From: Candidatus Gastranaerophilales bacterium
GTDB taxonomy: Bacteria; Cyanobacteriota; Vampirovibrionia; Gastranaerophilales; UBA9579
DNA: 64,000 bases
Assembly (NCBI GenBank): GCA_028689995.1
Contig: JAQVCB010000003.1
Span: 1,291 to 65,290, forward strand
Reading direction: 5' to 3'
A program made the translations under genes and the position numbers. Under the pieces are notes generated by a model, which did no database searches, was not told the DNA's origin, and was given only the letters and a program-made list of their open reading frames with translations. This document shows, piece by piece, positions 1,260 through 59,843 of this stretch; the stretch's first letter is position 1, and the number at the start of each line of letters is the position of its first letter.

Positions 1260-1265
1260 ATATTT

Positions 1266-8692: not shown

Positions 8693-8716
8693 CTAAAACT
8701 CCAGTTTTTATAATGT

Positions 8717-10034: not shown

Positions 10035-10040
10035 TAACTT

Positions 10041-10982
10041 ATGCGAATTCTAATAACCGGTTCAACCGGCATGGTCGGAAAAAATCTGCTTGAACATCCA
10101 GATATAAAAAAACATGATGTTTTAACTCCATCAAGTAAAGAGCTTAATTTGCTTGATGATAAGATAGTTTTTGATTATCTTACTTCTAATAAACCGAATA
10201 TTATTATACATGCCGCTGGAAAAGTTGGTGGAATTCAGGTGAATATGAAAAATCCTACATCTTTTCTGATTGAAAATATAAATATGGGCATAAACCTGGT
10301 AATGTCAGCAAAAAAAACAAATATTAAAAGGTTTTTAAACCTTGGAAGTTCTTGCATGTATCCAAGAGATGCACAAAATCCTTTAAATGAGGAGTTAATT
10401 CTTAAAGGTGAACTGGAACCTACCAATGAAGGTTATGCTATAGCTAAAGTTACAATAGCAAGGCTGTGTGAATATATATCCAGAGAAGATCCGACTTTTT
10501 ATTATAAAACATTAATACCTTGTAACTTATACGGTAAGTGGGATAAATTTGATCCTTCTCATTCGCATATGATTCCGGCAGTCATTAAAAAAATTCATGA
10601 AGCAAAGATAAACAAACAGGATTCAATAGAAATATGGGGAGACGGTAAAGCAAGACGGGAATTTTTGTATGCGGGTGATCTTGCAGATTGTATTCTTCAG
10701 TCAATACAAAATTTTGACTCAGTACCAACTTATATGAATGTGGGGTTAGGTTTCGATTTTACAATAAATGAATATTATGAAATTATTGGCAAAGTAGTAG
10801 GGTTTACGGGAGAATTTACCCATGATCTGTCAAAACCCGTGGGAATGAAGCAAAAGCTTGTCGATATATCAAAATTAAACCAATTTGGGTGGAAATATAA
10901 AACAAATCTTGAGGAAGGAATAAAGAAAACATATGAGTTTTACCTCGAAAATGAAAAAGATCAATTATCAATTAGCCAGTAG
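10041..10982 (+). CDS. fcl: GDP-4-keto-6-deoxymannose epimerase/reductase (GDP-L-fucose synthase Fcl, or ColC-type GDP-L-colitose synthase)
   Basis: 313 aa SDR with ITGSTGMVG, SSCMYP and YAIAK. It sits between gmd and a ColD-like dehydratase gene, so ColC function is equally possible. Confidence 0.8.
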   Translation: MRILITGSTGMVGKNLLEHPDIKKHDVLTPSSKELNLLDDKIVFDYLTSNKPNIIIHAAGKVGGIQVNMKNPTSFLIENINMGINLVMSAKKTNIKRFLNLGSSCMYPRDAQNPLNEELILKGELEPTNEGYAIAKVTIARLCEYISREDPTFYYKTLIPCNLYGKWDKFDPSHSHMIPAVIKKIHEAKINKQDSIEIWGDGKARREFLYAGDLADCILQSIQNFDSVPTYMNVGLGFDFTINEYYEIIGKVVGFTGEFTHDLSKPVGMKQKLVDISKLNQFGWKYKTNLEEGIKKTYEFYLENEKDQLSISQ

Positions 10983-12132
10983 CACTTGGGATAAAGCAGA
11001 ACTAGATGCCATTCAGCGGGTTATAGATTCTGCTGTATTTACTATGGATAAAAATGTTAAAACTTTTGAAGAAAATTTTGCTAAATATGTAGGCAGTAAA
11101 TACTGTGTAATGGTTAATTCAGGATCATCTGCCAATTTACTTGCTGTAGCTGCTCTTTTTTACAAAGAAAATAATTCCCTGAAAAAAGGTGATGAGGTTA
11201 TTGTACCTGCTGTATCTTGGCCAACAACATATTATCCTTTGGATCAATACGGATTAAAATTGAAATTTGTCGATATAGACTTAAATACATTAAATTATGA
11301 CCTTGAAGCATTAGCTGGCGCAGTATCAGATAAAACACGAATGATAATGACTGTAAATCTTCTTGGTAATCCAAATGATTTTAATAAAATCAAGGAAATT
11401 ATAGGATCAAGAAATATAATCCTTATCGAAGACAACTGTGAATCTATGGGAGCTGTTTATGAAGGTAATCAGGCTGGAACCTTCGGTCTTCTTGGAACAT
11501 TCAGCACATTCTTTAGCCATCATATGTCGACGATGGAAGGCGGATTAATTGTAACAGATGATGAGGAACTTTATCATATATTACTATGCCTTCGGGCTCA
11601 TGGTTGGACACGAAATCTACCTAAAGAAAATAAAATTTGTACAAAAAGTGATGATCTTTTTGAAGAGTCTTTCAGATTCTTATTACCGGGTTATAATGTC
11701 AGACCAATTGAAATGAGTGGGGCTATAGGAATTGAACAATTAAAAAAACTACCGGGTTTTCTTGAAGAAAGACGTAAAAATGCTGCGTATTTTCAGGAAA
11801 TTTTTAAGGATAACACTGATTTTTATATCCAAAAGGAAATCGGACAAAGCAGCTGGTTTGGATTTTCCTTTGTTATAAAGGAAAAATCCCCGTTAAAACG
11901 TAAAGATATTGTAAATAAGCTGACAAACGCAGGCATTGAATGCAGACCAATTGTAGCCGGCAATTTTGCAAAAAATGAAGTTGTAAAACATTTTAATTAT
12001 GAAATTTTCGATACATTAAAAAATGCTGAATTTATTGATAAAAATGGCTTTTTTGTAGGAAATCATCAGTTTGAAATAAAAGATAAAATCGAGTATTTAA
12101 GCAGTATTTTGAATGAATTATTAAACAGGTAA
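10951..12132 (+). CDS. colD: GDP-4-keto-6-deoxy-D-mannose 3-dehydratase-like (ColD-type), DegT-fold
   Basis: N-terminus MKKINYQLASSTWDKAELDAIQ. The active-site stretch FSTFFSHHMSTMEGG has His in place of the usual Lys, a ColD hallmark. The gene follows gmd and fcl. The track start at 10933 is an alternative. Confidence 0.72.
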   Translation: MKKINYQLASSTWDKAELDAIQRVIDSAVFTMDKNVKTFEENFAKYVGSKYCVMVNSGSSANLLAVAALFYKENNSLKKGDEVIVPAVSWPTTYYPLDQYGLKLKFVDIDLNTLNYDLEALAGAVSDKTRMIMTVNLLGNPNDFNKIKEIIGSRNIILIEDNCESMGAVYEGNQAGTFGLLGTFSTFFSHHMSTMEGGLIVTDDEELYHILLCLRAHGWTRNLPKENKICTKSDDLFEESFRFLLPGYNVRPIEMSGAIGIEQLKKLPGFLEERRKNAAYFQEIFKDNTDFYIQKEIGQSSWFGFSFVIKEKSPLKRKDIVNKLTNAGIECRPIVAGNFAKNEVVKHFNYEIFDTLKNAEFIDKNGFFVGNHQFEIKDKIEYLSSILNELLNR

Positions 12133-12136
12133 ACTT

Positions 12137-12940
12137 ATGATAATAGTCAAACTTATTGGCGGACTTGGAAATCAAATGTTTCAGTATGCTTTGGGTAAAT
12201 ATCTTGCTGTTAAGCATGATTCAAAGCTCAAGCTTGATTTATCCGGTTTTGAAAGCTATAAAGCTTGGAAATTTGAACTTGATAATCTGAATGTTCAATA
12301 TGAAAGTTACAATCCGGATGAAATAACTTCTTTAAATTATATTCAGGAAAAACAATTTCACTTTGATTCTGATATGCTTAATTTGTCTGATAATGTACAT
12401 CTTGATGGTTACTGGCAATCAGAGAAATATTTTAAAGAAATCGAAGAATATATAAGAAAAGATTTTTCCGTTGTAACCCCTATAAATAAAGAAAATCAGA
12501 GTCTGCTCGATCTGATTAACTCAACAAATTCCGTAAGTTTACATGTAAGAAGAGGGGATTATATTACAAATCCTTCTGCAAATGCTTTTCATGGCACATG
12601 CAGTCTTGATTATTACAATAAATCTGTCGAACATATTATAGAAAATATTGATAATCCTCATTTTTTCCTGTTTTCCGATGAATCTGAGTGGGTAAAAGAT
12701 AATATTTTAATAAATAAACCTGTTACAGTTGTTGATATTAATACTATTGATAATGGTTATGATGATTTAAGACTTATGTATAACTGTAAACATAATATTA
12801 TTGCAAATAGTTCATTCAGCTGGTGGGCGGCATGGCTTAATAATAATCCGCAAAAAATCGTTATTGCTCCTGACAAATGGTTTTTAAGTCCTGTACATGA
12901 TACTAAAGATTTAATACCGCAGGGATGGATAAAATTATGA
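12137..12940 (+). CDS. GT11 alpha-1,2-fucosyltransferase-family glycosyltransferase
   Basis: 267 aa with GGLGNQMFQYA, HVRRGDY and SSFSWWAAWL, the family-11 motifs. Confidence 0.85.
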   Translation: MIIVKLIGGLGNQMFQYALGKYLAVKHDSKLKLDLSGFESYKAWKFELDNLNVQYESYNPDEITSLNYIQEKQFHFDSDMLNLSDNVHLDGYWQSEKYFKEIEEYIRKDFSVVTPINKENQSLLDLINSTNSVSLHVRRGDYITNPSANAFHGTCSLDYYNKSVEHIIENIDNPHFFLFSDESEWVKDNILINKPVTVVDINTIDNGYDDLRLMYNCKHNIIANSSFSWWAAWLNNNPQKIVIAPDKWFLSPVHDTKDLIPQGWIKL

Positions 12941-13827
12941 ATCCTGAAATTACCGTATTAATGCCTGTATATAATTCTGAAAAATACTTAAAAGAATCCA
13001 TTGAAAGTATTTTAAATCAGACATTTAAAGATTTTGAATTTCTGATACTAAATGACGGTTCAACAGATCAAAGTGTAAATATTATTGAATCCTACAGTGA
13101 TTCTCGTATCAGATTAATCCACAATGAACAAAACCTTGGATTAATCAGTACTCTAAACAGGGGGATCGATCTTTCGCAGGGCAAATATATTGCAAGAATG
13201 GATTCAGACGATATTTCTTTTCCAGAGCGTTTGGAAAAGCAATTTAAACTTATGGAAGAAAAAAAAGATATAGGCATTTGCGGAACTTTATTTCAAGTTT
13301 TTGGAAAGCATAATTACATACCAAATCATCCTGAAAACACTGAATTAATAAAAGCATATCTTATATTTGGCTGTTATATTGGTCATCCGACAATAATGAT
13401 ACGAAAAAGTATTCTGGAACAACATGATCTAAAATATGATGACAATTTTAAACATGCTGAAGATTATGAATTGTGGACAAGAGTAATTAAATATTCAAAA
13501 TTTACCAATATTCAGGAAATTTTATTGCATTACAGGAGTCATGACAGCCAAATTTGTCAAAAATTTACACAAATTCAGTCGCAAAATTTAAGAAAAATTC
13601 ACTTCAACTATCTAAAAAATCTTGGATTTGAGCCATCAGAAAATGAAATAGGTATTCATAATGCTGTAATTGAGCAAAGATATAAAGACGATATTTCTTT
13701 TAAGGAAAAAGCCCGTATCTTGTACAATAAAATCATTGATGCAAATAAAAAAACGGGTTTTTTTGATGAAAAGGCTCTTGATTTTACAATAAAAAGTCTT
13801 TTTTATAACCCTTATAACTACAACTAA
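12925..13827 (+). CDS. GT2 glycosyltransferase (paralog of 18240-19253)
   Basis: Has VLMPVYNSEKYL, LNDGSTDQS and ARMDSDDIS (DxD). The likely start is the ATG at 12937, which overlaps the upstream TGA (ATGA). Confidence 0.85.
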   Translation: MDKIMNPEITVLMPVYNSEKYLKESIESILNQTFKDFEFLILNDGSTDQSVNIIESYSDSRIRLIHNEQNLGLISTLNRGIDLSQGKYIARMDSDDISFPERLEKQFKLMEEKKDIGICGTLFQVFGKHNYIPNHPENTELIKAYLIFGCYIGHPTIMIRKSILEQHDLKYDDNFKHAEDYELWTRVIKYSKFTNIQEILLHYRSHDSQICQKFTQIQSQNLRKIHFNYLKNLGFEPSENEIGIHNAVIEQRYKDDISFKEKARILYNKIIDANKKTGFFDEKALDFTIKSLFYNPYNYN

Positions 13828-13857
13828 TATGTAAAAATTTTTCAATAGAGGATAAAA

Positions 13858-14604
13858 ATGAATAAAGATGATATTAAAAATATTCCCGTTTTTATCATAA
13901 CCAGAAACAGACTTGAATGTTTAAAGAAACTTATAGAGTGGCTCGGGAAAAATGATCTTAAAAACATACATATTCTTGATAATAACTCGACATACAAACC
14001 TCTTGTAGATTATCTCGATAAATTGCCATATAAAGTCTATAAATTTGAGGAAAATATTGGTCATCTCGTTTTATGGAAATGCAATTTATTTGATAACATA
14101 ATAAAAACGCAAAATTTTATTCTTTCAGACCCCGATGTGATACCATTTGATGATTGTCCGACAGATGTAATTGAACAGTTTTTGAAAATATTAAATGAAA
14201 ATTCACAATTAACGAAAGTTGGTTTTTCTCTTGAAATAAATGATATACCTGATTATAATCCCTTGAGAGAATCGATCTGCGAATGGGAAAGTCAATATTG
14301 GACTAAAAAAATAGACAATCCGAATTATGATTTTGATTTATATACTGCACATATTGATACAACCTTTGCATTATACAGACCTGATATTCATTATAGAGAC
14401 GAAAAGTGGTATGATGCTATCCGAACAGGCAAGCCCTATATTGCAAGGCATCTGCCCTGGTATCAAAATCCTGATAATTTAAACGAAGAAGATGAATATT
14501 ATAAATCTACAGTAGCATATGATTATAGTAACTGGACTTTAGCAGAAAGTAATCAGGATATAAAGGACAGACTCAGATTTGATCTTATTGACAATCAAAA
14601 ATAG
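13858..14604 (+). CDS. Hypothetical protein, possibly a GT-A-like glycosyltransferase
   Basis: 248 aa. IPVFIITRNRLECLKKLI...ILDNNST...SDPDVIP resembles a GT-A Rossmann start plus a DxD. The context is a glycan locus. Function is not established. Confidence 0.45.
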   Translation: MNKDDIKNIPVFIITRNRLECLKKLIEWLGKNDLKNIHILDNNSTYKPLVDYLDKLPYKVYKFEENIGHLVLWKCNLFDNIIKTQNFILSDPDVIPFDDCPTDVIEQFLKILNENSQLTKVGFSLEINDIPDYNPLRESICEWESQYWTKKIDNPNYDFDLYTAHIDTTFALYRPDIHYRDEKWYDAIRTGKPYIARHLPWYQNPDNLNEEDEYYKSTVAYDYSNWTLAESNQDIKDRLRFDLIDNQK

Positions 14605-14633
14605 AAATATAAATTATAATAAGGATTATCTTA

Positions 14634-15500
14634 ATGAGAGTATCAATATGTATACCTGCATATAAACAGCCAGAATGTTTTAAAAGAGCTTTATTATCAA
14701 TTTTTGAACAGACATTTGAAGATTATGAAGTTATTATTACTGACGATTCCCCCGATAATTCAATTTTAGATGTTGTAAATGAATTTAATGATAGCAGAAT
14801 AAAATACTTTAAAAATGCTGAAAGAAAAGGTTCTCCTGAAAATTGGAATGCCTGTATTGATATTGCCACAGGTGAATATATTAAGTTTCTTCACCATGAT
14901 GACTGGTTTAAAGAAAAAGAAAGCCTGTCAAAATTTATCAAAATGCTGGATGATAATCCTAATGATGATCTTGCTTTCTGTGCAAGTGCAAACTGTTATC
15001 CTGATACAAGAATAAAAAATATTTTTCAACCAACTACTAATAAAATTAATGCGCTTAAAAAAGATCCTTTATTTTTATTTCCCTCTAACATTATTGGATC
15101 TCCAAGTGTAACTATATACAGAAAAAAAGTTAATAAAAAATTTGATAAAAAATTAAAATGGGTTGTTGATGTTGATTTTTATATAAGTATTCTGTCCGAG
15201 AATTCAGGTATTGTCTTTTGTAATGAGCCTTTAATTTCAGTTATGACAGGATCAGAAAATCAGGTAACTTCTTCCTGTCAAGATAATAAGAATGTTGAAC
15301 TGTATGAATGGCTGTATTTATATAATAAAAATATTAAAAAGATAAAAATTAGACAAACAAGATTTATATGCAAATTATTGAGTATTTATAAAATAAAATC
15401 AGAAAAAGAAATTCTGGATATGGGAATTAAATTGCCTACTAATATACTTTTTTATATAACATTATTTGCTAATAAATACATTTTTAAAGATTTATTATGA
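14634..15500 (+). CDS. GT2 glycosyltransferase
   Basis: 288 aa with VSICIPAYKQPE, ITDDSPDN and LHHDDW (DxD-like). Confidence 0.8.
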   Translation: MRVSICIPAYKQPECFKRALLSIFEQTFEDYEVIITDDSPDNSILDVVNEFNDSRIKYFKNAERKGSPENWNACIDIATGEYIKFLHHDDWFKEKESLSKFIKMLDDNPNDDLAFCASANCYPDTRIKNIFQPTTNKINALKKDPLFLFPSNIIGSPSVTIYRKKVNKKFDKKLKWVVDVDFYISILSENSGIVFCNEPLISVMTGSENQVTSSCQDNKNVELYEWLYLYNKNIKKIKIRQTRFICKLLSIYKIKSEKEILDMGIKLPTNILFYITLFANKYIFKDLL

Positions 15501-15513
15501 AAAAATCAGTATT

Positions 15514-16692
15514 TTACAGGTTCAAATACATTTTTTCATATTCTTTTGCTATTTTTTCCCAGGAAAACTTTTCTTTCCACGATTTAAAACCGTTTTGAGC
15601 GTATAATTTTCTTTTTTCATAATCTTTAAAAATATTTTCAAGTATTCTAACAGATTTTTCTATATCAACAAAAGTTAACCCAAACAATTCGGTTTGTTTG
15701 GTCGTAGGTAACAGTTCACCCGCATTGGACCAGCTGATAATTTCTGCTGAATTACCGACATCACTTGTTAGAAAAGGTGTTTTTGATGCCATGCATTCAA
15801 ATAGAACTATTGGTGAACATTCTATATTTGAAGGAAAGAGAAAAAGATCTGCTTCCTGGTATAATGCCACTGTTCTTTCTCTTGAAAATTCACCAACTAT
15901 AAACTGCTTTTTATCAAAAACTCGCTTTGGATTTAATTTAAAATAAAATTTTCTTTTTTTACATTGTTTTGTACATTTATCTCCAAAATCATTTGCTGAT
16001 ATTACAAAAGAAGCATTTGAAATATTTGCTTTTTCAAATATTTCAAATGCTTCTTTATGTCCTTTTGTCCCTGTATGGGAACCCACATGTAAAATCAAAA
16101 TATGATCTTTCGGTATGCCAAGTTCTTCTCTTATGCTACCGGGATATTCAATGGAAAACTCTCTTTCTTCTGCCCCATTTGGAATTAAAATTCTTTTTTC
16201 AACACCATTTTTACGTGCAAAATTTATATCTCTGTAATTATCTGATAGAAAAACATTCATGTCGTATTTTTTTAGCCAGACTTTCATTTTTTCAAAATAA
16301 TCAGAGAAATTTTCATCATACAAACGTGAAAAGCCTGTAGGAACAAAGACTTTTTTTGCCTTGATGTCATCAAGAATATTAAGACAAGCATCAGTTGTCC
16401 ATTGATGTGCTGCAAAATTCGTTATAACATTAAAATCAGAATTTTTTAATAAATCGTGATATCTTGGAAGTTCGCCTCTTTTCCCGAATATACCACTAAC
16501 GTAATTGCCTTTAATTTCAAATTCTTCTATTTTTACTCCGTTATATTCAGAAAAAGTTCTATCTTTATGCTTTGTAGTTACAACAGTAACATTATGTCCC
16601 AGTTTAACAAGTTTTTCTGAAAGATGTTTCACAACTTCCGGCATTCCGCCTATTGATGGATAATAATGTTCGACAGTATGTAAAATCTTCAT
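15514..16692 (-). CDS. GT4 (GT-B fold) glycosyltransferase
   Basis: 392 aa. N-terminus MKILHTVEHYYPSIGGMPEVV, and C-terminal FLFPSNIECSPIVLFECMASKTPFL (E-x7-E-like region). Confidence 0.8.
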   Translation of the reverse strand: MKILHTVEHYYPSIGGMPEVVKHLSEKLVKLGHNVTVVTTKHKDRTFSEYNGVKIEEFEIKGNYVSGIFGKRGELPRYHDLLKNSDFNVITNFAAHQWTTDACLNILDDIKAKKVFVPTGFSRLYDENFSDYFEKMKVWLKKYDMNVFLSDNYRDINFARKNGVEKRILIPNGAEEREFSIEYPGSIREELGIPKDHILILHVGSHTGTKGHKEAFEIFEKANISNASFVISANDFGDKCTKQCKKRKFYFKLNPKRVFDKKQFIVGEFSRERTVALYQEADLFLFPSNIECSPIVLFECMASKTPFLTSDVGNSAEIISWSNAGELLPTTKQTELFGLTFVDIEKSVRILENIFKDYEKRKLYAQNGFKSWKEKFSWEKIAKEYEKMYLNL

Positions 16693-16702
16693 TGCTTCTT
16701 TA

Positions 16703-17110
16703 TCAACATTCTAAAATGAAGAATCTGATTTTTTCAAGAAAATTCCTCGGAATAACCGAGACCATAGGAATTTTAATTTCAGGATAATCTTCTTCAAAGA
16801 ATTCCTTAATAATAAGATCGTTATAAACACATAACAGTATTAGATCAGGCTTAATTTCTTCGATTTGATCAGGAGAAAAAGTCTTATAATTTTTGAAATC
16901 TTCTTGCTCAAAGTATAAATATTTACTGTCTGCAAATCCAATAATATTGAGTTTTGATAGATCATAATTGTCTAAAATATTTTCTGCCAAAAGACCTGTT
17001 CCATATGCAAGAATTTTTTTATCTGCATATTTTTTAGCCAGAGTATCAAGATATTTTTGTAATTTCTTTTTTTCTAATATGTTCTTTAATTCATCACTTG
17101 TTTTACCCAT
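16703..17110 (-). CDS. Small hypothetical protein with a Rossmann-like domain shared with the C-terminus of the radical-SAM protein at 32322-33560
   Basis: 135 aa. KILAYGTGLLAENILDNYDLSKLNIIGFADS... aligns by eye with KICFWGAGDLAKIILDAYDFSKLNVLGFIDG... in the radical-SAM protein. Confidence 0.6.
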   Translation of the reverse strand: MGKTSDELKNILEKKKLQKYLDTLAKKYADKKILAYGTGLLAENILDNYDLSKLNIIGFADSKYLYFEQEDFKNYKTFSPDQIEEIKPDLILLCVYNDLIIKEFFEEDYPEIKIPMVSVIPRNFLEKIRFFILEC

Positions 17111-17209
17111 TTTGATTCCCTTTTTATAAATATTTTCTTAAATTATAGTTTAATTTATTAACTAAATAAAATTATTAAGTTTTTTATATCTCATTTTTTA
17201 TCGGAATTG

Positions 17210-18121
17210 TTAAGAATGATTAGTATTTTTCCATTTTATTGTATTTTTCAGACCTTCTTCAAGATTAATCTCATAATTCCAGTTTAGCATATTCTTTGCT
17301 TTTGAATTATCCAGTACACTGTCTTTTATATCACCTTCTCTTGGTACTATATAAGTAGCCTCGCTATTGTAGCCACTTATTGTCTTTAAAACATCGAATA
17401 AACTGTTAATACTAATACTATTATTAGTGGAAATATTCAATATTTCATTTTTTACGTCCGATTCAATTGCAAGCAGATTTGCTTTTGCTATATCTTCAAC
17501 ATAAACAAAATCTCTGGTCTGTTCTCCATCCCCATGTATTTCTATAGGCTGATCATTAAGCATCTTATCAATAAATATTGATATAACTCCTGCTTCTCCG
17601 AGTGCATCCTGTCTCGGTCCATAGACATTGGCATAACGGAAAATAATATAATCAATCCCAAAAAGCTTTATGTAACTTTCCATTGTTATTTTTGAAAGTC
17701 CATAAAAAGATAATGCAGTAATTTTATGTTTTTCATCCACAGGAAGATATTCAGGAATACCGTAAACAGCAGCTGTTGAAGCTGCAATAAGCTTTTTTAC
17801 TCCAAATTTTTTACAGTTTTGAAGTAAATTAACGCTTGCAGCAACATTCTGCTGAAGATCAAAAAGAGGATCCTTCATTGAAACAGAAACACTTGCCTGT
17901 GCAGCATGGTGACTGATATAATCTATCTGATTTTCAGTAAAAATTTTCTCAAGTTCCTGACTTTTTAAGTCAATTTTATAGAATTTAGCTTTAGGATTAA
18001 TATTATAATCTTTGCCAACGGATAAATTATCCGCAATAATCACTTCATAACCTTTTTCTATAAGTTTATCAACTATATGTGAGCCTATAAATCCGGCTCC
18101 ACCTGTTACTAATACTGCCAT
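17210..18121 (-). CDS. NAD-dependent sugar epimerase/dehydratase (UDP-glucose 4-epimerase-like SDR)
   Basis: 303 aa with VTGGAGFIGSH and YGLSK (YxxxK). Confidence 0.85.
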   Translation of the reverse strand: MAVLVTGGAGFIGSHIVDKLIEKGYEVIIADNLSVGKDYNINPKAKFYKIDLKSQELEKIFTENQIDYISHHAAQASVSVSMKDPLFDLQQNVAASVNLLQNCKKFGVKKLIAASTAAVYGIPEYLPVDEKHKITALSFYGLSKITMESYIKLFGIDYIIFRYANVYGPRQDALGEAGVISIFIDKMLNDQPIEIHGDGEQTRDFVYVEDIAKANLLAIESDVKNEILNISTNNSISINSLFDVLKTISGYNSEATYIVPREGDIKDSVLDNSKAKNMLNWNYEINLEEGLKNTIKWKNTNHS

Positions 18122-18239
18122 AAAACTCCTGACGCAAATATTTTTTCAAACGGTTTCTAAAATTATTATATTACATATGATAAAATTATTTATAACATAA
18201 TAAACAGGAAATTTGGATATTTATCGGGAGAAAGCTGGC

Positions 18240-19253
18240 ATGAATTTAGAAAATCCAAAAGTAACAGTATTAATGCCTGTTTATAACAGCGAAAAATATT
18301 TAAGAGAAGCTATAAAAAGCATTTTAAATCAAACGTTTTACGATTTTGAATTTTTAATTATAAATGACGGATCTACCGATAAAAGCGTTGATATCATCGA
18401 ATCATTCAATGACCCTCGTATCAGATTAGTCCATAATAAAAAGAATCTTGGATTAATTGCGTCGTTAAACAAGGGACTTGACTTGTGTAAAGGTGAATAT
18501 ATAGCAAGAATGGATGCTGATGATATTAGTCTGCCTACAAGACTAGAAAAACAGGTTGAATTTCTCGATTCTAATTCTGATACAGTAATTTGCAGCTCAT
18601 TGATAAAGACTTTTGGAGATGTAAATCCCTCTGTATTCAGATATCCTGAAAATCATGAATCAATAAAATCAACCCTGTTATTTAAAAATTCAATAGCTCA
18701 TCCTGCTGTAATGATGAAAAAATCTGCAATTAAAGGGTTATATTTTGATCCTGAATATAAACATGCAGAAGATTATGAATTATGGGTAAGAGCTTCAAAA
18801 TATTTAAAATTATATAATATGCAGGAAGTCCTCCTGCTCTACAGGATGCATGCTGAGCAGGTCAGTCAGCATCATCTCGAAGCACAATCAGCATCTTCAA
18901 GAAAGATTATGTTAAGTCAACTTGAAGATCTTGGAGTTAAACCGACAGAAGAAGAACTTGAACTTCATAAACAGATCGGCACTGGAAAAATTCAACCTTC
19001 AAATGAATTTGTTAACAGAGCGGAAAACTGGTTGATTAAGCTCAAAGATATTAATAAAAAGACATCTTATTATTCAGAATCTGCTTTTTCTTATGTAGTT
19101 GCAGAACATTGGTTTCTGGTGTGCATAAAAGCTTCAAAACTCGGCATATGGTCTTGCCGGAAGTTCTTTTATTCACCTTTGAGCAAGAAGAATAATTTAA
19201 GCCTGAAATCTAAACTAAAGCTTGTTTATAAATGCTTAAAACAGTTGAATTAA
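18240..19253 (+). CDS. GT2 glycosyltransferase (paralog of 12925-13827)
   Basis: Has VTVLMPVYNSEKYLREAIKSILNQTF...INDGSTDKS...ARMDADDIS. The ATG at 18240 is preferred over the TTG at 18213 (GGGAGA lies upstream). Confidence 0.85.
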   Translation: MNLENPKVTVLMPVYNSEKYLREAIKSILNQTFYDFEFLIINDGSTDKSVDIIESFNDPRIRLVHNKKNLGLIASLNKGLDLCKGEYIARMDADDISLPTRLEKQVEFLDSNSDTVICSSLIKTFGDVNPSVFRYPENHESIKSTLLFKNSIAHPAVMMKKSAIKGLYFDPEYKHAEDYELWVRASKYLKLYNMQEVLLLYRMHAEQVSQHHLEAQSASSRKIMLSQLEDLGVKPTEEELELHKQIGTGKIQPSNEFVNRAENWLIKLKDINKKTSYYSESAFSYVVAEHWFLVCIKASKLGIWSCRKFFYSPLSKKNNLSLKSKLKLVYKCLKQLN

Positions 19254-19339
19254 TAGATGCTGAAACAAGTTTAGTATGACACGTAATTTATCAATCATAA
19301 TTTGACTACTCCCAAATATTTTGTTTTAAAATAATAATC

Positions 19340-27744: not shown

Positions 27745-28851
27745 GTGCAGAGTTTTAAGAATAAAGAATACTATCAGATACTTGGAATCAAACCTTCTGC
27801 TGCTCAAAAGGAAGTAAAAGTTGCATACAGGGCTCTTGCCAGAAAATATCACCCTGACGTAAACAAGGGTAATAAGCTATCTGAAGAAAAATTTAAGGAA
27901 ATAGGCGAGGCTTATTTTGTTTTAAGTGATGAAAAAAAGCGAAAACAGTATGATCTGTTAAAAGGTTATAATCAAGTAAAAAATGAAGAAAATGCCAGCC
28001 AACAGACTAAAAAACGAGCAAGCGATGCTTATACCGAAAAAAGTGAAGAAAAGTCAACTACTGAAAAGACTTCTAAACCTAATAAAGAACCTCAGCATGA
28101 TAAATCATTCAATGATGTTTTTAATGAATTTTTAGACAATGTATTTAATAAAAATAACTTTACAGAACCTCCTTCAAGTCAGCCCAAACCAAAACAAACC
28201 GGCGCATCTAAAAAACGCGGCGATGATATTATGGCAGATATAAGTATTTCAATTGCTGAAGCTCATAACGGTACCACAAGAAAAGTTAATATACTTCATA
28301 CTGATCCTTGCGGACAATGTAAAGGTACAAAACTTACCAATGGATCTACTTGTATTATCTGTAACGGCAAGGGAGAAGTAACTAATCATAAGAAAATTAA
28401 CGTCAAAATCCCTACAAATGTCAAAGAAGGGTCTAAGATCAGAATTCCTTATGAGGGAAATAAAGGGCAAAATGGCGGTCAGAACGGTGATCTCTATCTT
28501 TTAATACATATTCAGAAACATTCTATGTTTACTTTTGAGAACCTGAATGTGTTATGTGAAATACCTGTTACTCCCAGTGAAGCTGCGCTTGGCGCAGAAA
28601 TTGATGTGCCGACTATTGACGGGCATGTTAACATGAGAATACCTTCTGAAACCCAGTCTGGTCAGAAATTTAGATTAGCGGGCGAAGGAATTGCAGATTC
28701 GCAATCAGGCAAAAGAGGGGATCAGCTTGTTACAATCATGATAGGAATTCCTGACAATTTGTCTGAAAAAGAAAAACAGCTTTATCAGGAACTTGCAAGG
28801 ATAAGAAAATTTAATCCGAGAGAAAATATTGTTTATGAATACGATAAATAA
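27745..28851 (+). CDS. J-domain co-chaperone (DnaJ-like, atypical)
   Basis: GTG start 6 nt after GGAGG. It has a J domain (YYQILG...HPD) and a K/E/S/T-rich linker in place of a G/F region. Only two CxxCxGxG-type motifs are present ([16 protein letters not shown]). The C-terminal domain is DnaJ-like. Confidence 0.8.
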
Positions 28852-29623
28852 TCACGATTTTTCTAATTTACATAGTCATGATGCAAATATAATAGAAATA
28901 TTTTCTTCTATACAGGGAGAAGGTCCTTATATCGGATACAGACAGCTTTTTGTAAGGTTCGCTTTATGTAATTTAAACTGTTTTTATTGCGATACAAAAT
29001 TTGAACCCCAAAAATTCTGTAAAATCGAAGAATGTCCGGGATCAGGCAATTTTGTTGAGCAAGAAAATCCTATTACGAGTGATCAGCTTATATATAAAAT
29101 AAATGAATTTTCTTATTTTAACCATCATAGTCTAAGTCTTACAGGTGGAGAACCGTTGCTTTATTGTGATTTTCTTGATTATTTTTTGTCTGAGTTTCAA
29201 AAGAAGAAGAAAAATAAGAGTTTGAAGATTTATCTTGAGACAAACGGAACGCTGCCCGATGAATTGAAGAAAATTATCAGGTATCTCGATATTATTTCGA
29301 TGGATATAAAAATTGAGTCTTCCTGTAGAAAACCGACTCCATGGAGGGAGCATGGTCAGTTTATTAATACTGCTCTTAATCATAATAAGGAATTGTTTGC
29401 AAAAGTTGTTGTAACTGATAAAATAACCTCGAATGAAATCGATGATATAGCGGAATTTTTAAAGAACAGGGAAGTGTCGGTTATACTTCAGCCTGTTACG
29501 TCTGAGAATAAAGATATAGTTCCAAATGCATCAAAATTATTAAGCACTCAGGAAACCCTGCTTAAAAAGCTCAACGATGTAAGAATAATTCCGCAGGTTC
29601 ACAAATATTTGGATTTACAGTAA
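28829..29623 (+). CDS. queE: 7-carboxy-7-deazaguanine synthase-like radical-SAM enzyme
   Basis: Has [36 protein letters not shown] (QueE signature with Cx3Cx2C). The 5' end overlaps the end of the J-protein gene. Confidence 0.82.
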
Positions 29624-29687
29624 TATTACAGCAGAACTTGTTATTGATGGGCATACTTGCCCATCCTACTAATCACAGGAATAAAAT

Positions 29688-29891
29688 ATGATAAAAATAA
29701 CTCTGAACGGTGAAGAAAAGGAAATTACGCCGAACTCTTCAGTGAAAGATCTTGTTGAAACAATTGAGCTCAAGAGTAAGATGTTTGTTGTTGAAAAAAA
29801 TCTTAAAATAGTGGCAAAAGAAGATTATGAAAGCTGTATTATTCAAGATGGCGACGCTGTTGAGATAGTCGGTTTTTTTGGAGGCGGTTAA
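29688..29891 (+). CDS. thiS: ThiS/MoaD-type sulfur-carrier (ubiquitin-like) protein
   Basis: 67 aa, ITLNGEEKE...DAVEIVGFFGGG, with a C-terminal Gly-Gly. Confidence 0.7.
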   Translation: MIKITLNGEEKEITPNSSVKDLVETIELKSKMFVVEKNLKIVAKEDYESCIIQDGDAVEIVGFFGGG

Positions 29892-29892
29892 A

Positions 29893-31437
29893 TTGAAAAC
29901 AGATATATTAAAAACAGTATATATAGATGGTGAAAACCTTACTTTAGAAGATGTTGAACTTGTTGCAAGGGACAGAGTAAAAGTAGAATTAAGCAAGGAT
30001 GCTTTTGGCAAAATAAATGCCGCCAGAAAATTTGTTGAAGAAGTAATAAATGAAGGAACCCATGTATACGGTATAAATACAGGTTTTGGGGCATTAAGTA
30101 ACGTAATTATTCCTGATAACCAGATTGAAAATCTTCAGCTGAATTTAATAAGAAGCCATGCCTGCGGTGTTGGAGTTCCTCATTCCGAAGAGGTAACGAG
30201 GGCAATTATTCTGTTAAGAGCAAATACTCTGGCAAAAGGCTTTTCTGGGATCAGGCTGGAAACTGTAAATACCATGCTTGAGCTTCTCAATAAACAGGTG
30301 CATCCTGTAATACCAAGTCAGGGGTCTGTTGGGGCAAGCGGTGATCTTGTGCCATTAGCTCATCTAGCACTTGTACTCGTGGGAGAAGGTAAGGCAATTT
30401 ATAAAGGCCAGACAATGTCAGGGCTTGAAGCCCTTAATAAAGCAGGAATTAAGCCGATTGTTTTAGGTGCAAAAGAAGGTCTTGCTCTTACTAATGGCAC
30501 TCAATCCATGTGTGGCATGGCAACATTAAGATTGCTTGAAGCAGAAAGGCTTGTTAAGATTTCTGATATCGCTGGAGCAATGACACTCGAGGCAATAAGA
30601 GGAACTTCTAAGGCATTTGATCCTAAAATTCAAAATTTGAGAAGACATCCCGGACAGATTGCTACCGCAAAAAATTTGTTAAAACTGCTTGCTGACAGTG
30701 AAATTATGTTATCTCACAATGACTGCGGTAAAATTCAGGATCCGTATTCTGTAAGATGCATGCCGCAGGTTCATGGAGCTACAAGGGATGCATTAAACTA
30801 TGTGAGAAAAGTTCTTGAAATTGAAGTCAATTCAGCTACCGATAATCCTCTGATCTTTGCAGAAGAAAGAGAAACGATTTCAGGCGGGAATTTTCATGGT
30901 CAGCCGCTCGCTTTTGCAATGGACTTTCTTGGAATAGCTGTAGCAGAACTTGCTAGTATTTCAGAAAGACGTATAGATAAACTCATTGCACCTGCATTCA
31001 GCGATCTTCCACCATTCTTGACGAATGACAGCGGTATAAATTCAGGTCTTATGATAGTTCAATACACAGCTGCATCGCTAGTTAGCGAAAATAAAATTCT
31101 TGCTCATCCTGCAAGTGTTGATTCCATTCCAACTTCACTCGACAAGGAAGATCATGTCAGCATGGGAGCTACGGCTGCTTTAAAAGCTGAAAACATTATT
31201 AAAAATACCAGAAACGTTCTTGCTATCGAACTATTAACAGCATATCAGGGTATAAACTTCCTGAAAACGCTTTCGCCCGGAATTGGTGTAAAAATTGCAC
31301 ATGAAACAATCGGCAGGACAATTCCTGAAATATCGCAGGACAGAGTTTTTTCTGATGATATTTATAAGATAGCAGAGATGATAAATTCCAACGAGATTCT
31401 TGATAGAGTTCAGGAAGTAATCGGAGAGCTTGAGTAA
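29893..31437 (+). CDS. hutH: Histidine ammonia-lyase (MIO enzyme)
   Basis: Has GSVGASGDL (Ala-Ser-Gly MIO precursor) and NLIRSHACG (the Ser-His selectivity pair typical of HAL). The TTG at 29893 lies 9 nt after GGAGG. The track start at 29878 is an alternative. Confidence 0.9.
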   Translation: MKTDILKTVYIDGENLTLEDVELVARDRVKVELSKDAFGKINAARKFVEEVINEGTHVYGINTGFGALSNVIIPDNQIENLQLNLIRSHACGVGVPHSEEVTRAIILLRANTLAKGFSGIRLETVNTMLELLNKQVHPVIPSQGSVGASGDLVPLAHLALVLVGEGKAIYKGQTMSGLEALNKAGIKPIVLGAKEGLALTNGTQSMCGMATLRLLEAERLVKISDIAGAMTLEAIRGTSKAFDPKIQNLRRHPGQIATAKNLLKLLADSEIMLSHNDCGKIQDPYSVRCMPQVHGATRDALNYVRKVLEIEVNSATDNPLIFAEERETISGGNFHGQPLAFAMDFLGIAVAELASISERRIDKLIAPAFSDLPPFLTNDSGINSGLMIVQYTAASLVSENKILAHPASVDSIPTSLDKEDHVSMGATAALKAENIIKNTRNVLAIELLTAYQGINFLKTLSPGIGVKIAHETIGRTIPEISQDRVFSDDIYKIAEMINSNEILDRVQEVIGELE

Positions 31438-31545
31438 ACTCATCATACATGCTCTGTCATTCTGAGGGCTTTAGCCCGAAGAATCTACTTGCATTATAAT
31501 ACAATTAATAGTGTCATGCTGAACTTGTTTCAGCATCTCTACATA

Positions 31546-31800
31546 TTGTACTTGTTATTTATAATGGGCTTACCACCCAAACCCTGTCTTCATTTTCTTT
31601 GTCCACACAAAGAAAACGAAACAAAAGAAAAGTGCCCCAGAAAATAATTTCTATTTTTCTAAGTTCACTAAATTGCAGTAAAAGACAAAATGTGTCGGCT
31701 GCGGAATCTCACCTGCTTTAGCAGGTTCGGTCAGTCCTCGCCCTCCTAAAGACACGTTCACCAAGAAAAATTACGAAATTCTTTTAAGGGGGGGGTAACG
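31546..31800 (+). repeat. Extra tandem (direct) copy of the core of the long repeat that flanks the radical-SAM gene
   Basis: Aligns with 31879-32135 over about 255 bp (attgtactt.ttatttataatgggcttaccaccc...ggctgcggaatctcacctgctttagcaggttcggtcagtcctcgccctcctaaagacacgttcac). It ends in a G8 run at 31788-31795. Confidence 0.85.
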
Positions 31801-31832
31801 GTGCACCGTGTATTCTAAGTGATTACAAGTGC

Positions 31833-32178
31833 TGTCATCCTGAGGAGTGTAACGACGTGAGGATCTTGTCAACGTGGCAATTGTACTTATTATTTATAAT
31901 GGGCTTACCACCCAAACCCCGTGTCTATTTTCTTTTGCCGCCAAAAGAAAATAGACAAAAAGAAACGTGTCCCGAAAATAATTTCTATTTTTCTAAGTTC
32001 ACTAAATTGAGATGAAAGACAAAATGTGTTGGCTGCGGAATCTCACCTGCTTTAGCAGGTTCGGTCAGTCCTCGCCCTCCTAAAGACACGTTCACTAAGA
32101 AAAACCACGAAATTCTTTTATGGGGGATTTGTTTGAAATATGAAACTGTTGGGTCAAAGTTGACCCAACCTACTTGCT
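31833..32178 (+). repeat. Left arm of the ~350-bp inverted repeat bracketing the radical-SAM gene
   Basis: Reverse complement of 33615-33975 at roughly 90% identity by hand alignment. The inner end carries the palindrome gttgggtcaaagttgacccaac. Confidence 0.9.
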
Positions 32179-32321
32179 GGATAATTACGATTTGAATAAA
32201 CTCCTACCAAAACAGCTTGCATTATTCGAAAAATTAAGTAAAATACATACTTATTAGATTGATTTAAATTACTTACCTTTTAGCTGGGAAATATATTTTT
32301 TTTGATATAAAGGATTATCTT

Positions 32322-33560
32322 ATGAATGATGTTATTTTAAGAGAATATTACGATTTTATTTCATTAGATATTACAAGTAATTGTAATTTAAGATGCCCTT
32401 TTTGTTCTAATGATTTTAGATATATTCCTGATAATATCAATATGACAAAAAAAACTTTTGAAAAAGCGATAAAACTTTTATCATTAGCAAAAGATGATAG
32501 ATTTATGTTTTCCTGTGCGTTTGAACCATCTATAAATCCAAATTACGTTCAATTGTTAAAAATGATTCCTGAAGAAGGAAAAAATAAATGTTTTTTAACT
32601 ACTAATTTATCATTGAAGCAACCAGAGGAAACTTTCAAAGCTTTAGCTGAATCTAATATAAATTATATAAATATTTCTCTTGATTCATTAAATCCTGTTA
32701 CTTATGAATCTTTAAGAAAAGGAGCTAAATTTGATAATTTCATATCAAATTTGGAAACTATGGTGTCTACTTTTAAGAAATATCCAAATGCTCCAAAAAT
32801 TAAATTTATAACAATGGTATTTAAGCAAAATATAGGTGAATTATTAACTGTGGCACATATTTGTCATTCAAGGTATTTAGCCTATGAGCATGAATTTAGA
32901 ACCCCAGTCTATGACACATATTCATATATAGATGAAGAATGGGCAAAGAATTCCGTTATATCAAGATTAGAATGGGATAGTTTAATCGAAAATCTATCCA
33001 AATTGCAATATAGATTTGGATTTGGGCCGCCACCATTTCCTGCTCATTCAGGATCAGAAGCTGAATGCCCAGATTCTATAGTTCTGAGAATTGATTCGGA
33101 TGGTACTACACTAATAAAAAATAAAAATTATGGCAATATTAATGATATAGAAAATCCTTATGAATTTTTCAAAAGTAAGTTATATGAACTTCGTAATGAC
33201 AAGAAGCAAGAAATGATTAATGTTCGTGTTTATAAACCAAAAGAGAAAATAGAAAAGTTTATTAAAGATAATCAAGGTAAAAAAATATGTTTCTGGGGAG
33301 CAGGAGATCTTGCTAAAATAATCTTAGATGCTTATGATTTTTCAAAATTAAATGTACTCGGATTTATAGATGGAAATAAAGATAAAAAGGGTCAAAAAAT
33401 TGGTAATTATACTATTTATTCAAGTGCTGATCTTGAATTACTTGATCCCGAAATTATTGTTCTAAGTGTACTTGAGTTTAAATATTTAGCAAATCTGGTA
33501 AATAAAATATTAAAAGATAAAAATCTAAAAATAAAAGTAATTGATGACTTATTTTATTAG
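32322..33560 (+). CDS. Radical-SAM enzyme with a C-terminal Rossmann-like domain (probable glycan/sugar-modifying enzyme)
   Basis: 412 aa. ITSNCNLRCPFCSN is the CxxxCxxC cluster motif. The C-terminal ~93 aa (KICFWGAGDLAKIILDAY...GFIDGNKDKKGQKIGNY) resembles ORF 16703-17110 and NeuD/WbaP-type N-terminal domains. Confidence 0.8.
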   Translation: MNDVILREYYDFISLDITSNCNLRCPFCSNDFRYIPDNINMTKKTFEKAIKLLSLAKDDRFMFSCAFEPSINPNYVQLLKMIPEEGKNKCFLTTNLSLKQPEETFKALAESNINYINISLDSLNPVTYESLRKGAKFDNFISNLETMVSTFKKYPNAPKIKFITMVFKQNIGELLTVAHICHSRYLAYEHEFRTPVYDTYSYIDEEWAKNSVISRLEWDSLIENLSKLQYRFGFGPPPFPAHSGSEAECPDSIVLRIDSDGTTLIKNKNYGNINDIENPYEFFKSKLYELRNDKKQEMINVRVYKPKEKIEKFIKDNQGKKICFWGAGDLAKIILDAYDFSKLNVLGFIDGNKDKKGQKIGNYTIYSSADLELLDPEIIVLSVLEFKYLANLVNKILKDKNLKIKVIDDLFY

Positions 33561-33614
33561 TTTTTTATAACCTTAAATGGTATTTATGTAAGATTTAAAT
33601 AAAAAGTAGTTTTA

Positions 33615-33975
33615 GCAAGCAAGTAGGTTGGGTCAAAATTGACCCAACAGTTTTATATTCAAACAAATCTCCCCTTAAAATAATTTCGTGATTTTTCTTA
33701 GTGAACGTGTCTTTAGGAGGGCGAGGACTGACCGAACCTGCTAAAGCAGGTGAGATTCCGCAGCCGACACATTTTGTCTTTTATCTCAGTTTAGTGAACT
33801 TAGAAAAATAGAAATTATTTTCGGGGCACGTTTCTTTTGGCTACTTTTCTTTGAGTGACAAAGAAAAGTAGCACGGGTAAAGGGTGGTAAACCCTTTTAT
33901 AAATAATAAGTACAATTGTCACGTTGGCAAGATCTTCACGTTGCTTCTCTCTTCAGTATGACATTCGAGAGTTTG
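33615..33975 (-). repeat. Right arm of the ~350-bp inverted repeat bracketing the radical-SAM gene
   Basis: Reverse complement of 31833-32178. The inner end carries gttgggtcaaaattgacccaac. Confidence 0.9.
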
Positions 33976-34077
33976 TTATTTAATGGGGGCTATCTCACTT
34001 GGTTCTGCATCTAATAGACCCTGAAACAAGTTCAGGGTCACACAAAAACTTATTGCTCTGAACTATAACACTATTGA

Positions 34078-34842
34078 TTACTTAATCAATTCCCTTGCAA
34101 TGTGACTTGCCATCATATAGCCGGCGGCTGGGGGTACGAAAGGAGAGCTTCCGGGTGTAAATTTCCTCAGTTGTATATCTTCTCCTGCAGCCGTCTTAAT
34201 TTCAATAAATTCTTCTTTTTTCTCTGTTATAAAAGGTTTTTCCGTACTGGAAATAACTGTCAGTCCTTCAGTTATACCTCTGATTTTTAGCTTGTGTTTA
34301 ACATTTTTAACAAAAGCACATTTTCTGACTTTTACTTCTGAAATATCAGCTACATAAAGTTGGGCGGGATCAAGCCTGTTTCCTGCTCCCATCGAACTGA
34401 TAATTGAAACGTCAAGGTTACGGCAGGTTTCTATAAGATCAATTTTCGATTTTAAAGTATCTATGGCATCCGCTACAAAATCAACTTTTTCTGAAAATAT
34501 TTGACTATTAAGACTTAAAGAATAAAATTCATTTATTGTAACAACCTGAATATGAGGATTTATGTTTTCTATACGCTTTTTCATCAGTTCTGTCTTGAAT
34601 TTTCCGATATCAGAAATCAAAGCAAGAAGCTGTCTGTTTATATTAGTCTCTGAAACAGTATCAAAATCAATCAGAGTTAACTTTCCAATTCCGCATCTTG
34701 CAAGAGCTTCCGCAGTATAAGAACCGACTCCGCCAAGACCCGCAATAATTACATGTTTTTCAAAGAGCTTTTTTTGAGCCTCTCTGCCCCATATAAGCTC
34801 ATTTCTTTCATAAATTCTATTTATATCAATTTCGTTTGTCAT
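34078..34842 (-). CDS. tcdA: tRNA threonylcarbamoyladenosine dehydratase (ThiF/MoeB-family E1-like)
   Basis: MTNEIDINRIYERNELIWG...VIIAGLGGVGSYTAEALARCGIGKLTLIDFDTVSETNINRQ. The ATG at 34842 is preferred. The longer track ORF would overlap the upstream gene by more than 100 nt. Confidence 0.82.
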   Translation of the reverse strand: MTNEIDINRIYERNELIWGREAQKKLFEKHVIIAGLGGVGSYTAEALARCGIGKLTLIDFDTVSETNINRQLLALISDIGKFKTELMKKRIENINPHIQVVTINEFYSLSLNSQIFSEKVDFVADAIDTLKSKIDLIETCRNLDVSIISSMGAGNRLDPAQLYVADISEVKVRKCAFVKNVKHKLKIRGITEGLTVISSTEKPFITEKKEEFIEIKTAAGEDIQLRKFTPGSSPFVPPAAGYMMASHIARELIK

Positions 34843-53126: not shown

Positions 53127-53200
<74 letters not shown>

Positions 53201-53221
53201 ATTTACTCAATTCCCAAACAT

Positions 53222-53294
53222 GGGGGTGTAGCTCAGTTGGTAGAGCGCTTGCCTTGCACGCATGATGTCAGGAGTTCGAGTCTCCTCACCTCCA
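53222..53294 (+). tRNA. tRNA-Ala (anticodon UGC)
   Basis: Acceptor GGGGGTG/CACCTCC includes the G3:U70 alanine identity pair. Anticodon loop CTTGCAC and T arm AGGAG-TTCGAGT-CTCCT. There is one U:U mismatch in the anticodon stem. No encoded CCA. Confidence 0.93.
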
Positions 53295-53296
53295 GA

Positions 53297-53336
53297 TTAA
53301 AGACCACGTTCATTACGAATGTGGTCTTTAATTTTT
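53297..53336 (+). terminator. Rho-independent terminator after the tRNA pair
   Basis: ttaaagaccac-N13-gtggtctttaa (11-bp stem) followed by ttttt. Confidence 0.8.
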
Positions 53337-53522
53337 GGAAAATCACGCACATAGCGGGCTTTGCGGAGTTTGATTTTGGTAGAGAATTTATTTCGGAGAA
53401 AATCAGCAGATTTTTCGGGAGAAAATAAGGAGAATTCTCAGATTGATTTTTTAGTGACGCCGTGGGTATTTCAGGCAAATAAAAAAGCCATTGATATTTA
53501 TTAACGACTTCTTAAAACAAAA

Positions 53523-55615: not shown

Positions 55616-55692
55616 GTCTGTAATCCTTTCTAAACTTGATAACAGACATATTAATCACTCTGCTATTCTCAGAAATCAAGTGTTTTCTAACT

Positions 55693-59814: not shown

Positions 59815-59843
59815 TATAAATCTCCCGAAAGGGAACTTTTACA

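Follow-up and report, generated by a model that had tools for sequence, protein, structure and literature searches.

We analyzed a 64,000-nt stretch of DNA (henceforth the window) from Candidatus Gastranaerophilales bacterium, contig JAQVCB010000003.1, in which a radical S-adenosylmethionine (SAM) gene is enclosed by two long inverted repeats in the interval between hutH and a tcdA-like gene; coordinates are window positions unless prefixed with L. The left core gene of this interval, hutH (29893-31437, plus strand), encodes a 514-residue protein of the histidine ammonia-lyase family (Pfam Lyase_aromatic, 4.6e-202; NCBIfam hutH above cut-off), and the database copy of its product is likewise 514 residues long. 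The right core gene (34078-34842, minus strand) belongs to the ThiF family (Pfam ThiF, 7.6e-42); its best NCBIfam match, TcdA, falls below the model cut-off, and its start at 34842 was inferred from the 256-residue orthologue on L088, a contig of the closest relative described below. The enclosed gene, or cargo, spans 32322-33560 on the plus strand and encodes a 412-residue enzyme with the motif CNLRCPFC, a radical-SAM domain (Pfam Radical_SAM, 1.8e-19) and a C-terminal C2185-like_N/NeuD-like domain (PF22674), in agreement with the single CxxxCxxC radical-SAM gene that the initial annotation had placed between the repeats. Its statement that no transposase or recombinase lies inside the cassette was borne out by a Pfam scan of open reading frames (ORFs), which covered all ORFs of at least 110 residues not nested in longer ORFs and left out seven short nested ones.

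The flanking repeats, first read as reverse complements at 31833-32178 and 33615-33975 with about 90% identity, proved to be inverted arms at 31833-32184 (arm B, plus strand) and 33612-33963 (arm C, minus strand) with 88% identity across 352-355 nt (blastn E 4.5e-124). Arm B comprises a short hairpin (SH3, 31833-31868), a conserved unit (~31880-32140) and a 45-nt inner extension that includes a palindrome, while arm C comprises the hairpin SH3' (33928-33963), a conserved unit (~33655-33916) and a palindrome-bearing inner extension; the part common to the whole repeat family stops near 32140 in arm B. The long core attributed to the arms was confirmed: a 50-nt core occurs three times without mismatch in the window, as against no match in shuffled windows. 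The longest exact tract between arms B and C is 74 nt (32031-32104 versus 33692-33765). The third, direct copy that had been described on the left with a G8 run at its end was recovered as unit A (31545-31800, plus strand), which lies in tandem with arm B, is 89% identical to it over 248 nt (31545-31792) and carries the G8 run at 31788-31795. The near-perfect palindrome reported at the gene-side end of each arm, 22 bp long (GTTGGGTCAA-NN-TTGACCCAAC), lies at 32148-32169 and 33627-33648; these are its only two copies in the window, and their central dinucleotides are unequal, AG versus AA. The 45-nt inner extension bearing it is common to arms B and C only, with no counterpart in unit A or in any of the relative's copies, and in the corresponding spot between units A and B lies a 12-bp perfect palindrome, ACGGTGCACCGT (31798-31809, read directly). 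The palindrome of arm C is followed on the plus strand by AGTTTTATATT, a terminator-like arrangement that probably acts as the terminator of the radical-SAM gene.

The closest public HutH protein (P0122, 91% identical) is encoded on a 177-kb JGI contig (L088) with the same gene order: homoserine dehydrogenase, dnaJ, a QueE-like radical-SAM gene, thiS and hutH, followed by tcdA, dnaJ, pfk and ompH. Its hutH/tcdA interval contains two inward-facing units, at L088 11562-11894 (plus strand) and L088 14295-13993 (minus strand), which enclose genes for TcmP (TIGR04474, 4e-49) and a DUF5131 protein (3.8e-99) that match the PADLOC candidate defence pairs PDC-M30/M41 (1e-114). This pair is thus a candidate defence (anti-phage) system. 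The two genes (L088 12033-13940), coding for 400 residues with a weak GMT-like winged helix-turn-helix match (TcmP) and for 238 residues (DUF5131), are convergent and overlap by 12 nt. Each of the three cargo genes next to a unit runs in the same direction as that unit and begins 70-182 nt beyond its end, namely the radical-SAM gene after arm B, TcmP after the left unit of L088 and DUF5131 after the right one. In a third relative (HutH 84% identical), the first ~60 nt of a unit follow hutH before the contig ends, while relatives at 76%, 70% and 67% HutH identity have no unit at all and the HutH loci of 80 GTDB species show neither the synteny nor the repeat. Since the inverted pair occupies the same hutH/tcdA site in both genomes around different genes, it appears to be a resident feature of the locus, with the cargo as what varies, and it would predate the split of this genome from its nearest sampled relative. 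The initial annotation had proposed an invertible or mobilisable cassette; its exchangeable part is upheld by this finding of unrelated genes within the same inward-facing pair, and its inversion part is taken up below.

The arms belong to a small dispersed family of non-coding units ~265 nt long. Scanning with an invariant 20-mer returned five loci; in the relative the units occupy at least four loci, spread over three contigs, while in the 64 kb of the window there are three copies, all at one locus. In the relative, one unit lies directly downstream of bioA and another after bioF-bioG-bioC, each co-oriented with the upstream gene, and at all four distinct loci the unit stands 3' of a gene end in the same orientation as the gene. 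At the hutH/tcdA loci the unit comes directly after a short hairpin resembling repetitive extragenic palindromic (REP) sequences, GTCATNCTGA...TCAGNATC. The bio-linked units are solitary, bracket nothing and are followed by non-coding sequence with no gene. The earlier reading had been set against the possibility of an ordinary dispersed repeat that does not bracket genes elsewhere, and the solitary bioA and bioC copies fit that description in part.

Each bio-linked unit makes up the 5' third of an ORF-less element of 690-750 bp with terminal inverted repeats of 19-28 nt (ATGTAACAAAATAGTGAAT ... ATTCACTATTTTGTTACAT), present downstream of bioA and bioC in the relative (L092 2734-3484; L093 887-1573, minus strand; L095 6779-7464). 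The element holds a second module, a long hairpin with a 23-bp perfect inner stem, and taken whole as RNA it folds with z = -12.3. L093 and L095, which are related assemblies, differ in the genes immediately past the element. A degenerate left terminal repeat remains on the hutH-side copy of the relative; terminal inverted repeats are absent from all three copies in the window. Both ends of the bio-linked copies abut AT, a dinucleotide that is its own reverse complement and so may represent a 2-bp target-site duplication or belong to the terminal repeat. In size and in lack of coding capacity the family resembles a miniature inverted-repeat transposable element (MITE), with ~265 nt for the unit and 690-750 nt for the full element; terminal inverted repeats are not present on each copy but are intact only in the bioA- and bioC-linked elements, and no autonomous insertion sequence (IS) sharing the terminal ends was found in the 1.56 Mb of sequence examined. 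Exact k-mer scans of GTDB genomes, viral contigs and JGI metagenomes gave no match to the core, which we attribute to its lineage-specific loop. Arm B had no match in plasmid and phage BLAST searches, nor as a six-frame pseudo-protein query against 5.8 billion proteins, and nhmmer recovered every copy in the examined sequence and nothing weaker.

The short hairpins that accompany the units are themselves a dispersed family. SH1, GTCATTCTGAGGGC-TTTA-GCCCGAAGAATC (31455-31488, plus strand), was assigned to the GTCATNCTGA hairpin family by reading the sequence, and a repeat search found SH2, GTCATGCTGAACTTGTTTCAGCATC (31511-31540, plus strand), which abuts unit A, and SH2', GTGACCCTGAACTTGTTTCAGGGTC (34016-34043, minus strand), downstream of tcdA. 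Altogether, GTCATNCTGA...TCAGNATC hairpins are scattered through intergenic DNA at 19255-19282, 31455-31488, 31511-31540, 31833-31868, 33928-33963 and 34016-34043. In the relative, SH2-type hairpins number five in 21.5 kb of L088, and the hairpin behind tcdA scores as an intrinsic terminator. The presence of SH2 beside unit A had raised the idea that the window arrangement is an inversion of that in the relative; we dropped it on finding SH2 to be a common dispersed hairpin.

The units are far more conserved than expected from the distance between the two genomes. Four-fold degenerate sites of hutH are 57.5% identical, whereas the 3' two-thirds of the unit outside a variable loop show 89-100% identity between the window copies and three of the four copies in the relative, and the last segment of the bioA-linked copy is 85-90% identical to the window copies. 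Invariant blocks of 25-35 nt run through the units. The predicted structure begins with hairpin 1, directly after a conserved TATAAT/TATAAA box, and hairpin 2 with a stem of 10-15 bp; a long closing helix pairs CCCCGAAAATAATTTCTATTTTTCT with AGAAAAAnnACGAAATTCTTTTAnGGGG, an inner helix pairs AATGTGTC with GACACGTT, and a GC-rich core with the variable loop follows. In this model 94% of cells pair, and compensatory double changes occur in seven of 64 pairs, as against 0-2 in slid controls, in an alignment of only seven sequences. These changes fall in hairpins 1 and 2, in the loop stem and at one position of the closing helix (U·C in place of which arm C has U-A and the bio copies G-C). Helices 3-7 never covary, and the long helices are invariant and hence uninformative; the helices supported by covariation are simple hairpins, which DNA could form equally well. 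Signals of strandedness are mixed: an invariant U·G in helix 6 and an alternation of G·U with G-C mildly favor the cargo-facing strand, while hairpin 2 favors the opposite one, having A·C on the cargo-facing strand and G·U on the other. Rfam contained no match to the units (E up to 10 at the window locus and up to 0.1 in L088, L092 and L093).

Small ORFs shared by A, B and C (36 residues on the reverse strand, 19-23 residues on the forward strand) have no ribosome-binding site, and database look-ups of the 36-residue reverse-strand frame gave no match. The core is 50 nt long in the window and 51 or 53 nt in the relative, which breaks both frames. Since the core differs in length by non-multiples of three and the small ORFs are not conserved, we conclude from the alignments that the units are non-coding. 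A coding reading, or one in which the units would encode the precursor of a ribosomally synthesized and post-translationally modified peptide (RiPP), was likewise rejected: indels of 1-3 nt between copies break the frame, there is no Shine-Dalgarno sequence, no SPASM model matched the radical-SAM enzyme above cut-off, and the homologues of this enzyme lie in glycan clusters.

Comparison of the copies gave a mosaic. The 5' part of the unit falls into three subtypes common to both genomes: that of arm C is 97% identical to the bioC copy of the relative and that of unit A is 81-83% identical to the hutH-side and tcdA-side copies of the relative, while hairpin 2 of arm B resembles hairpin 2 of the relative's bioA copy. 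The variable loop, by contrast, does not differ at all among A, B and C (100% identity) and shares only ~50% identity with the loops of the relative. Since the loop is uniform within the window while the 5' subtypes cross genomes, gene conversion or concerted evolution appears to pass sequence between the copies of one genome, and the position of a copy would then not define its orthology. A side observation concerns the loop itself. The loop on the tcdA side of the relative, CCTCACGTTGTT (L088 ~14100), is the reverse complement of the neighboring hairpin AACGACGTGAGG (L088 11561-11596) at 11 of 12 positions, a likeness seen post hoc, and the apex of the window loop, GCTTTAGC (31716-31723), equals the apex of SH1 (31468-31475). 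Other copies match a neighboring hairpin only with an indel, and the complementarity may be due to chance.

How might such a locus arise? What is observed is a conserved frame with different cargo in the two genomes, a family of several copies, constraint on the unit and mosaic similarity among the copies. The explanation that we prefer, and to which we give an even chance, is that hutH and tcdA enclose an accessory-gene slot with conserved units at its borders, in which cargo is exchanged by homologous recombination, the arms are gene-converted and the units are linked to a MITE. Incoming DNA with the same flanks (unit plus core gene) would replace the enclosed cargo by homologous recombination, gene conversion would keep the arms alike within a genome, and the units would derive from, or ride on, a non-autonomous MITE-like element that lodges beside terminator hairpins. 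RecA-mediated inversion of 32185-33611 would be possible through the 74-nt perfect tract, as a neutral by-product rather than a function: because the arms are alike and both face inward, inversion would leave the surroundings of the gene unchanged.

Several points weigh against the slot. The frame was recovered in two lineages only, so that the term itself rests on two cargo states, and the data showed no instance of exchange, no empty site and no donor. The breakpoints at which the cargo diverges coincide with the inner ends of the units, and a site-specific process would look alike. The link to a MITE is circumstantial, in that the window arms have no terminal repeats, the AT duplication is ambiguous and no matching IS was found. 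Conservation this strong and this patterned is unusual for a selfish repeat and argues for a cellular function. Lastly, the copy number of the unit in its own genome was counted within the 64 kb only.

We regard the best of the alternatives as possible though clearly the weaker account: each unit would be the gene for a new structured RNA of ~230-265 nt, or a cis-acting leader, transcribed toward the cargo and driving or regulating the adjoining accessory gene, and the inverted layout would represent two expression modules facing a shared slot. Strong purifying selection, the invariant blocks, the variable loop and the compensatory stem changes all suit such an RNA, as do the co-orientation and short spacing of the three cargo genes (three of three, at 70-182 nt) and the G·U pairs that mildly favor the cargo-facing strand. 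Expression signals tell both ways. A TATAAT/TATAAA box precedes hairpin 1 by 1-3 nt in all copies, but as a -10 box at this distance it would start transcription inside the hairpin; a sigma-70-type -35 box exists only in window arms B and C and not in the relative, and since -35 boxes are not conserved we rejected an autonomous promoter in every unit. Of the five copies at the hutH/tcdA loci, four (all but unit A) end in a G-run and then a T-rich run, an ending that neither of the two bio-linked copies has; no canonical terminator hairpin stands beside the T-run. Also against an RNA or leader are the lack of an Rfam family, the bio-linked units that precede no gene, the contrary strand preference of hairpin 2 and the absence of the family from relatives at 67-76% HutH identity.

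A composite non-autonomous transposon, either MITE-flanked or a mobile insertion cassette, in which unit, cargo and unit were moved together in trans, seems improbable to us. The initial annotation knew of no described class with this architecture, which was too strong a claim, because MITE-flanked structures resembling composite transposons with variable cargo have been described: in Acinetobacter a 439-bp MITE flanks class 1 integrons, MITEs of 439 bp and 502 bp flank integrons or a 76-kb region, and MITE-297 flanks a 76-kb region (PMC6382973). As in those precedents, two non-coding copies of a few hundred bp bracket the cargo here, no transposase lies inside and the cargo differs (PMC6382973); moreover, a version of the element bounded by terminal inverted repeats exists at other loci of the relative. 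However, the flanking copies in the window have neither outer or intact terminal repeats nor a target-site duplication that we could find, they occupy one chromosomal site rather than plasmids, and they are conserved far above neutral sites with compensatory changes in their stems. Furthermore, the frame sits at the same site in both genomes with different cargo, whereas a transposed module would show the opposite, and homologous radical-SAM loci are without the repeats. The only transposase-related Pfam match in the window is a secondary one (IstB_IS21) on a DnaA-like ATPase at 63169-63957, and no transposase was found in the loci of the relative among called genes, ORF lists and precomputed Pfam matches.

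Quite speculative, and less probable again, is the idea that the unit is a new structured RNA acting with a recombinase encoded elsewhere, which would target REP-like hairpins and capture or exchange the genes between facing units, the loop serving as guide. Strong constraint, a lineage-specific loop, oriented placement by hairpins, breakpoints at the unit ends and the one complementarity of 11 in 12 positions are compatible with it. The non-coding ends of some IS elements encode structured guide RNAs, namely the bridge RNA of IS110 and the omega RNA of IS200/605. The unit resembles these ends as a structured module of ~200-250 nt at an element end, oriented beside REP-like hairpins and with one lineage-variable loop; it differs in having no linked recombinase gene and no Rfam match, and the full element has terminal inverted repeats, which are atypical of IS110. 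The complementarity of loop and hairpin that suggests this lead occurs in one copy only and was seen post hoc.

We consider it very unlikely that the locus is a programmed phase-variable cassette, in which a site-specific recombinase flips the 1.43-kb segment, or the DNA between the 22-bp palindromes, and so turns the radical-SAM gene on and off. Phase variation is common among genes for surface-glycan modification, and as in Hin/hix, Gin/gix and Bacteroides-type invertons, inverted repeats here bracket a segment with a cell-surface-related gene; the 10-2-10 palindromes are laid out like serine-recombinase sites, and the window does encode a large serine recombinase (551 residues, 53523-55178, minus strand), the only recombinase found among the scanned ORFs. 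Unlike the invertase of those systems, it is not adjacent but lies at a prophage-like junction next to tRNA genes, at a distance of 19.5 kb, and the arms measure ~350 bp rather than 15-30 bp. The AG and AA centers of the palindromes would block productive serine-recombinase exchange, the palindrome is missing from the frame of the relative, and the arms are symmetric and inward-facing, so that a flip would leave the upstream context of the gene unchanged and would not switch its expression. The only other assembly, a Logan contig that is possibly from the same sample, has the same orientation. Given the absence of an adjacent invertase, the unequal palindrome centers and the symmetric arms, the inversion part of the proposed cassette is not supported. 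The palindromes were also rejected as sites for the prophage recombinase, given only two copies and mismatched central dinucleotides. In the prophage-like island at the right end of the window (53127-64000), tRNA-Ile and tRNA-Ala (53127-53294) come first, and after them lie this recombinase and genes for DUF2924, an N6/N4 DNA methylase, DUF5681, a terminase-like protein, a PD-(D/E)XK nuclease, a WYL-domain protein and the DnaA/IstB-like ATPase.

An assembly artefact, with the inverted repeat produced by a chimeric or fold-back join in the metagenome, is scarcely credible: although repeats do break short-read assemblies and the Logan contig (SRR22315505, possibly the window's own source) stops inside both arms, this contig carries the gene with the inner ~95 nt of both arms in inverted orientation, the arms differ by 12% and have unlike 5' subtypes, and the relative, assembled from two other metagenomes, shows the same inverted architecture.

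Two further classes of chromosomal feature invite comparison with the slot. Accessory-gene and defence hotspots hold a fixed position between core genes while their content varies, presumably exchanged by way of homologous flanks. The locus described here is similarly fixed between core genes and variable in content, including a candidate defence pair, with exchange via the flanks presumed; it differs in that the variable DNA is bounded directly by inverted conserved structured units, which are also found elsewhere in the genome. Small repeats of the REP/BIME, Correia, ERIC, BOX and RUP type occur in multiple copies downstream of genes, with which they are often co-transcribed; they are non-coding and form hairpins. 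The short GTCATNCTGA... hairpins beside the units resemble such repeats, whereas the unit is much longer (~265 nt) and multi-helix, with long invariant blocks and few copies. The locus does not qualify as an intact MITE, a composite transposon or an inverton. What is new is the unit itself (~265 nt, several helices, conserved far beyond synonymous sites, no Rfam match) and its place as the immediate boundary of a variable slot. If the slot explanation is true, an uncultured lineage of low GC content maintains a fixed frame in which accessory genes related to the cell surface and to phages can dock, a frame that is bounded by paired conserved structured non-coding units as well as by core genes. 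Because it is conserved far beyond synonymous sites, the unit family is a concrete candidate for a functional RNA or a protein-bound DNA element.

We also asked what kind of gene the window's cargo is. A radical-SAM homologue of 68% identity sits in the relative within a cluster of glycosyltransferase and epimerase genes on contig L002, which we took together with L088 as one genome, since one metagenome yielded both and their distance from the window is similar. The flanks of that cluster are syntenic with the window at 9.0-19.3 kb, at 78-93% protein identity. Since this homologue lies inside a glycan cluster, the window's cargo appears, judging by homology, to be a gene of glycan-cluster type at a different place. 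In the window, positions 456-19253 form one large surface-glycan cluster with a transketolase-like gene, DegT aminotransferases, dTDP-rhamnose genes, an ATP-binding cassette (ABC) exporter, GDP-mannose dehydratase, an epimerase and glycosyltransferases of families GT11, GT2 and GT4; its ends are conserved with L002 and its middle (10.9-14.6 kb) is different, the radical-SAM homologue being in the middle of the L002 cluster. No such repeats stand beside the two closest homologues, the other of which, on L007, is 71% identical. DNA similarity of the cargo to the L002 and L007 homologues begins only ~15-30 nt 5' of the ATG, which leaves the AT-rich leader of the radical-SAM gene (32185-32321, plus strand) as unique sequence in this comparison. 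On L007, a stretch at 1925-1965 (ATTATTTATAAT...CTTACCA), ~190 nt upstream of the homologue, is similar to the beginning of the unit (TTATTATTTATAATGGGCTTACCA); a common promoter-like motif is one possible reason, chance in AT-rich DNA another.

The core genes to the left of the slot belong to a longer conserved string. The order dnaJ, QueE-like radical SAM, thiS, hutH (window 27745-31437; L088, L089, L091 and L098) is kept down to 67% HutH identity, and thiS abuts or overlaps the start of hutH. The suggestion that the cassette separates a ThiS-like from a ThiF-family gene is weak, as hutH too stands between them, the TcdA match is below cut-off and no ThiF-family gene follows hutH in the relatives that have no repeat. 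No hutU or hutI was found among the called genes or Pfam-scanned ORFs flanking the string; for this reason, and because thiS lies at the start of hutH, this histidine ammonia-lyase may serve a pathway other than histidine catabolism. The best named relatives of HutH (55-61% identity) come from Cyanobacteriota, Vampirovibrionales and Melainabacteria metagenome-assembled genomes, plus others.

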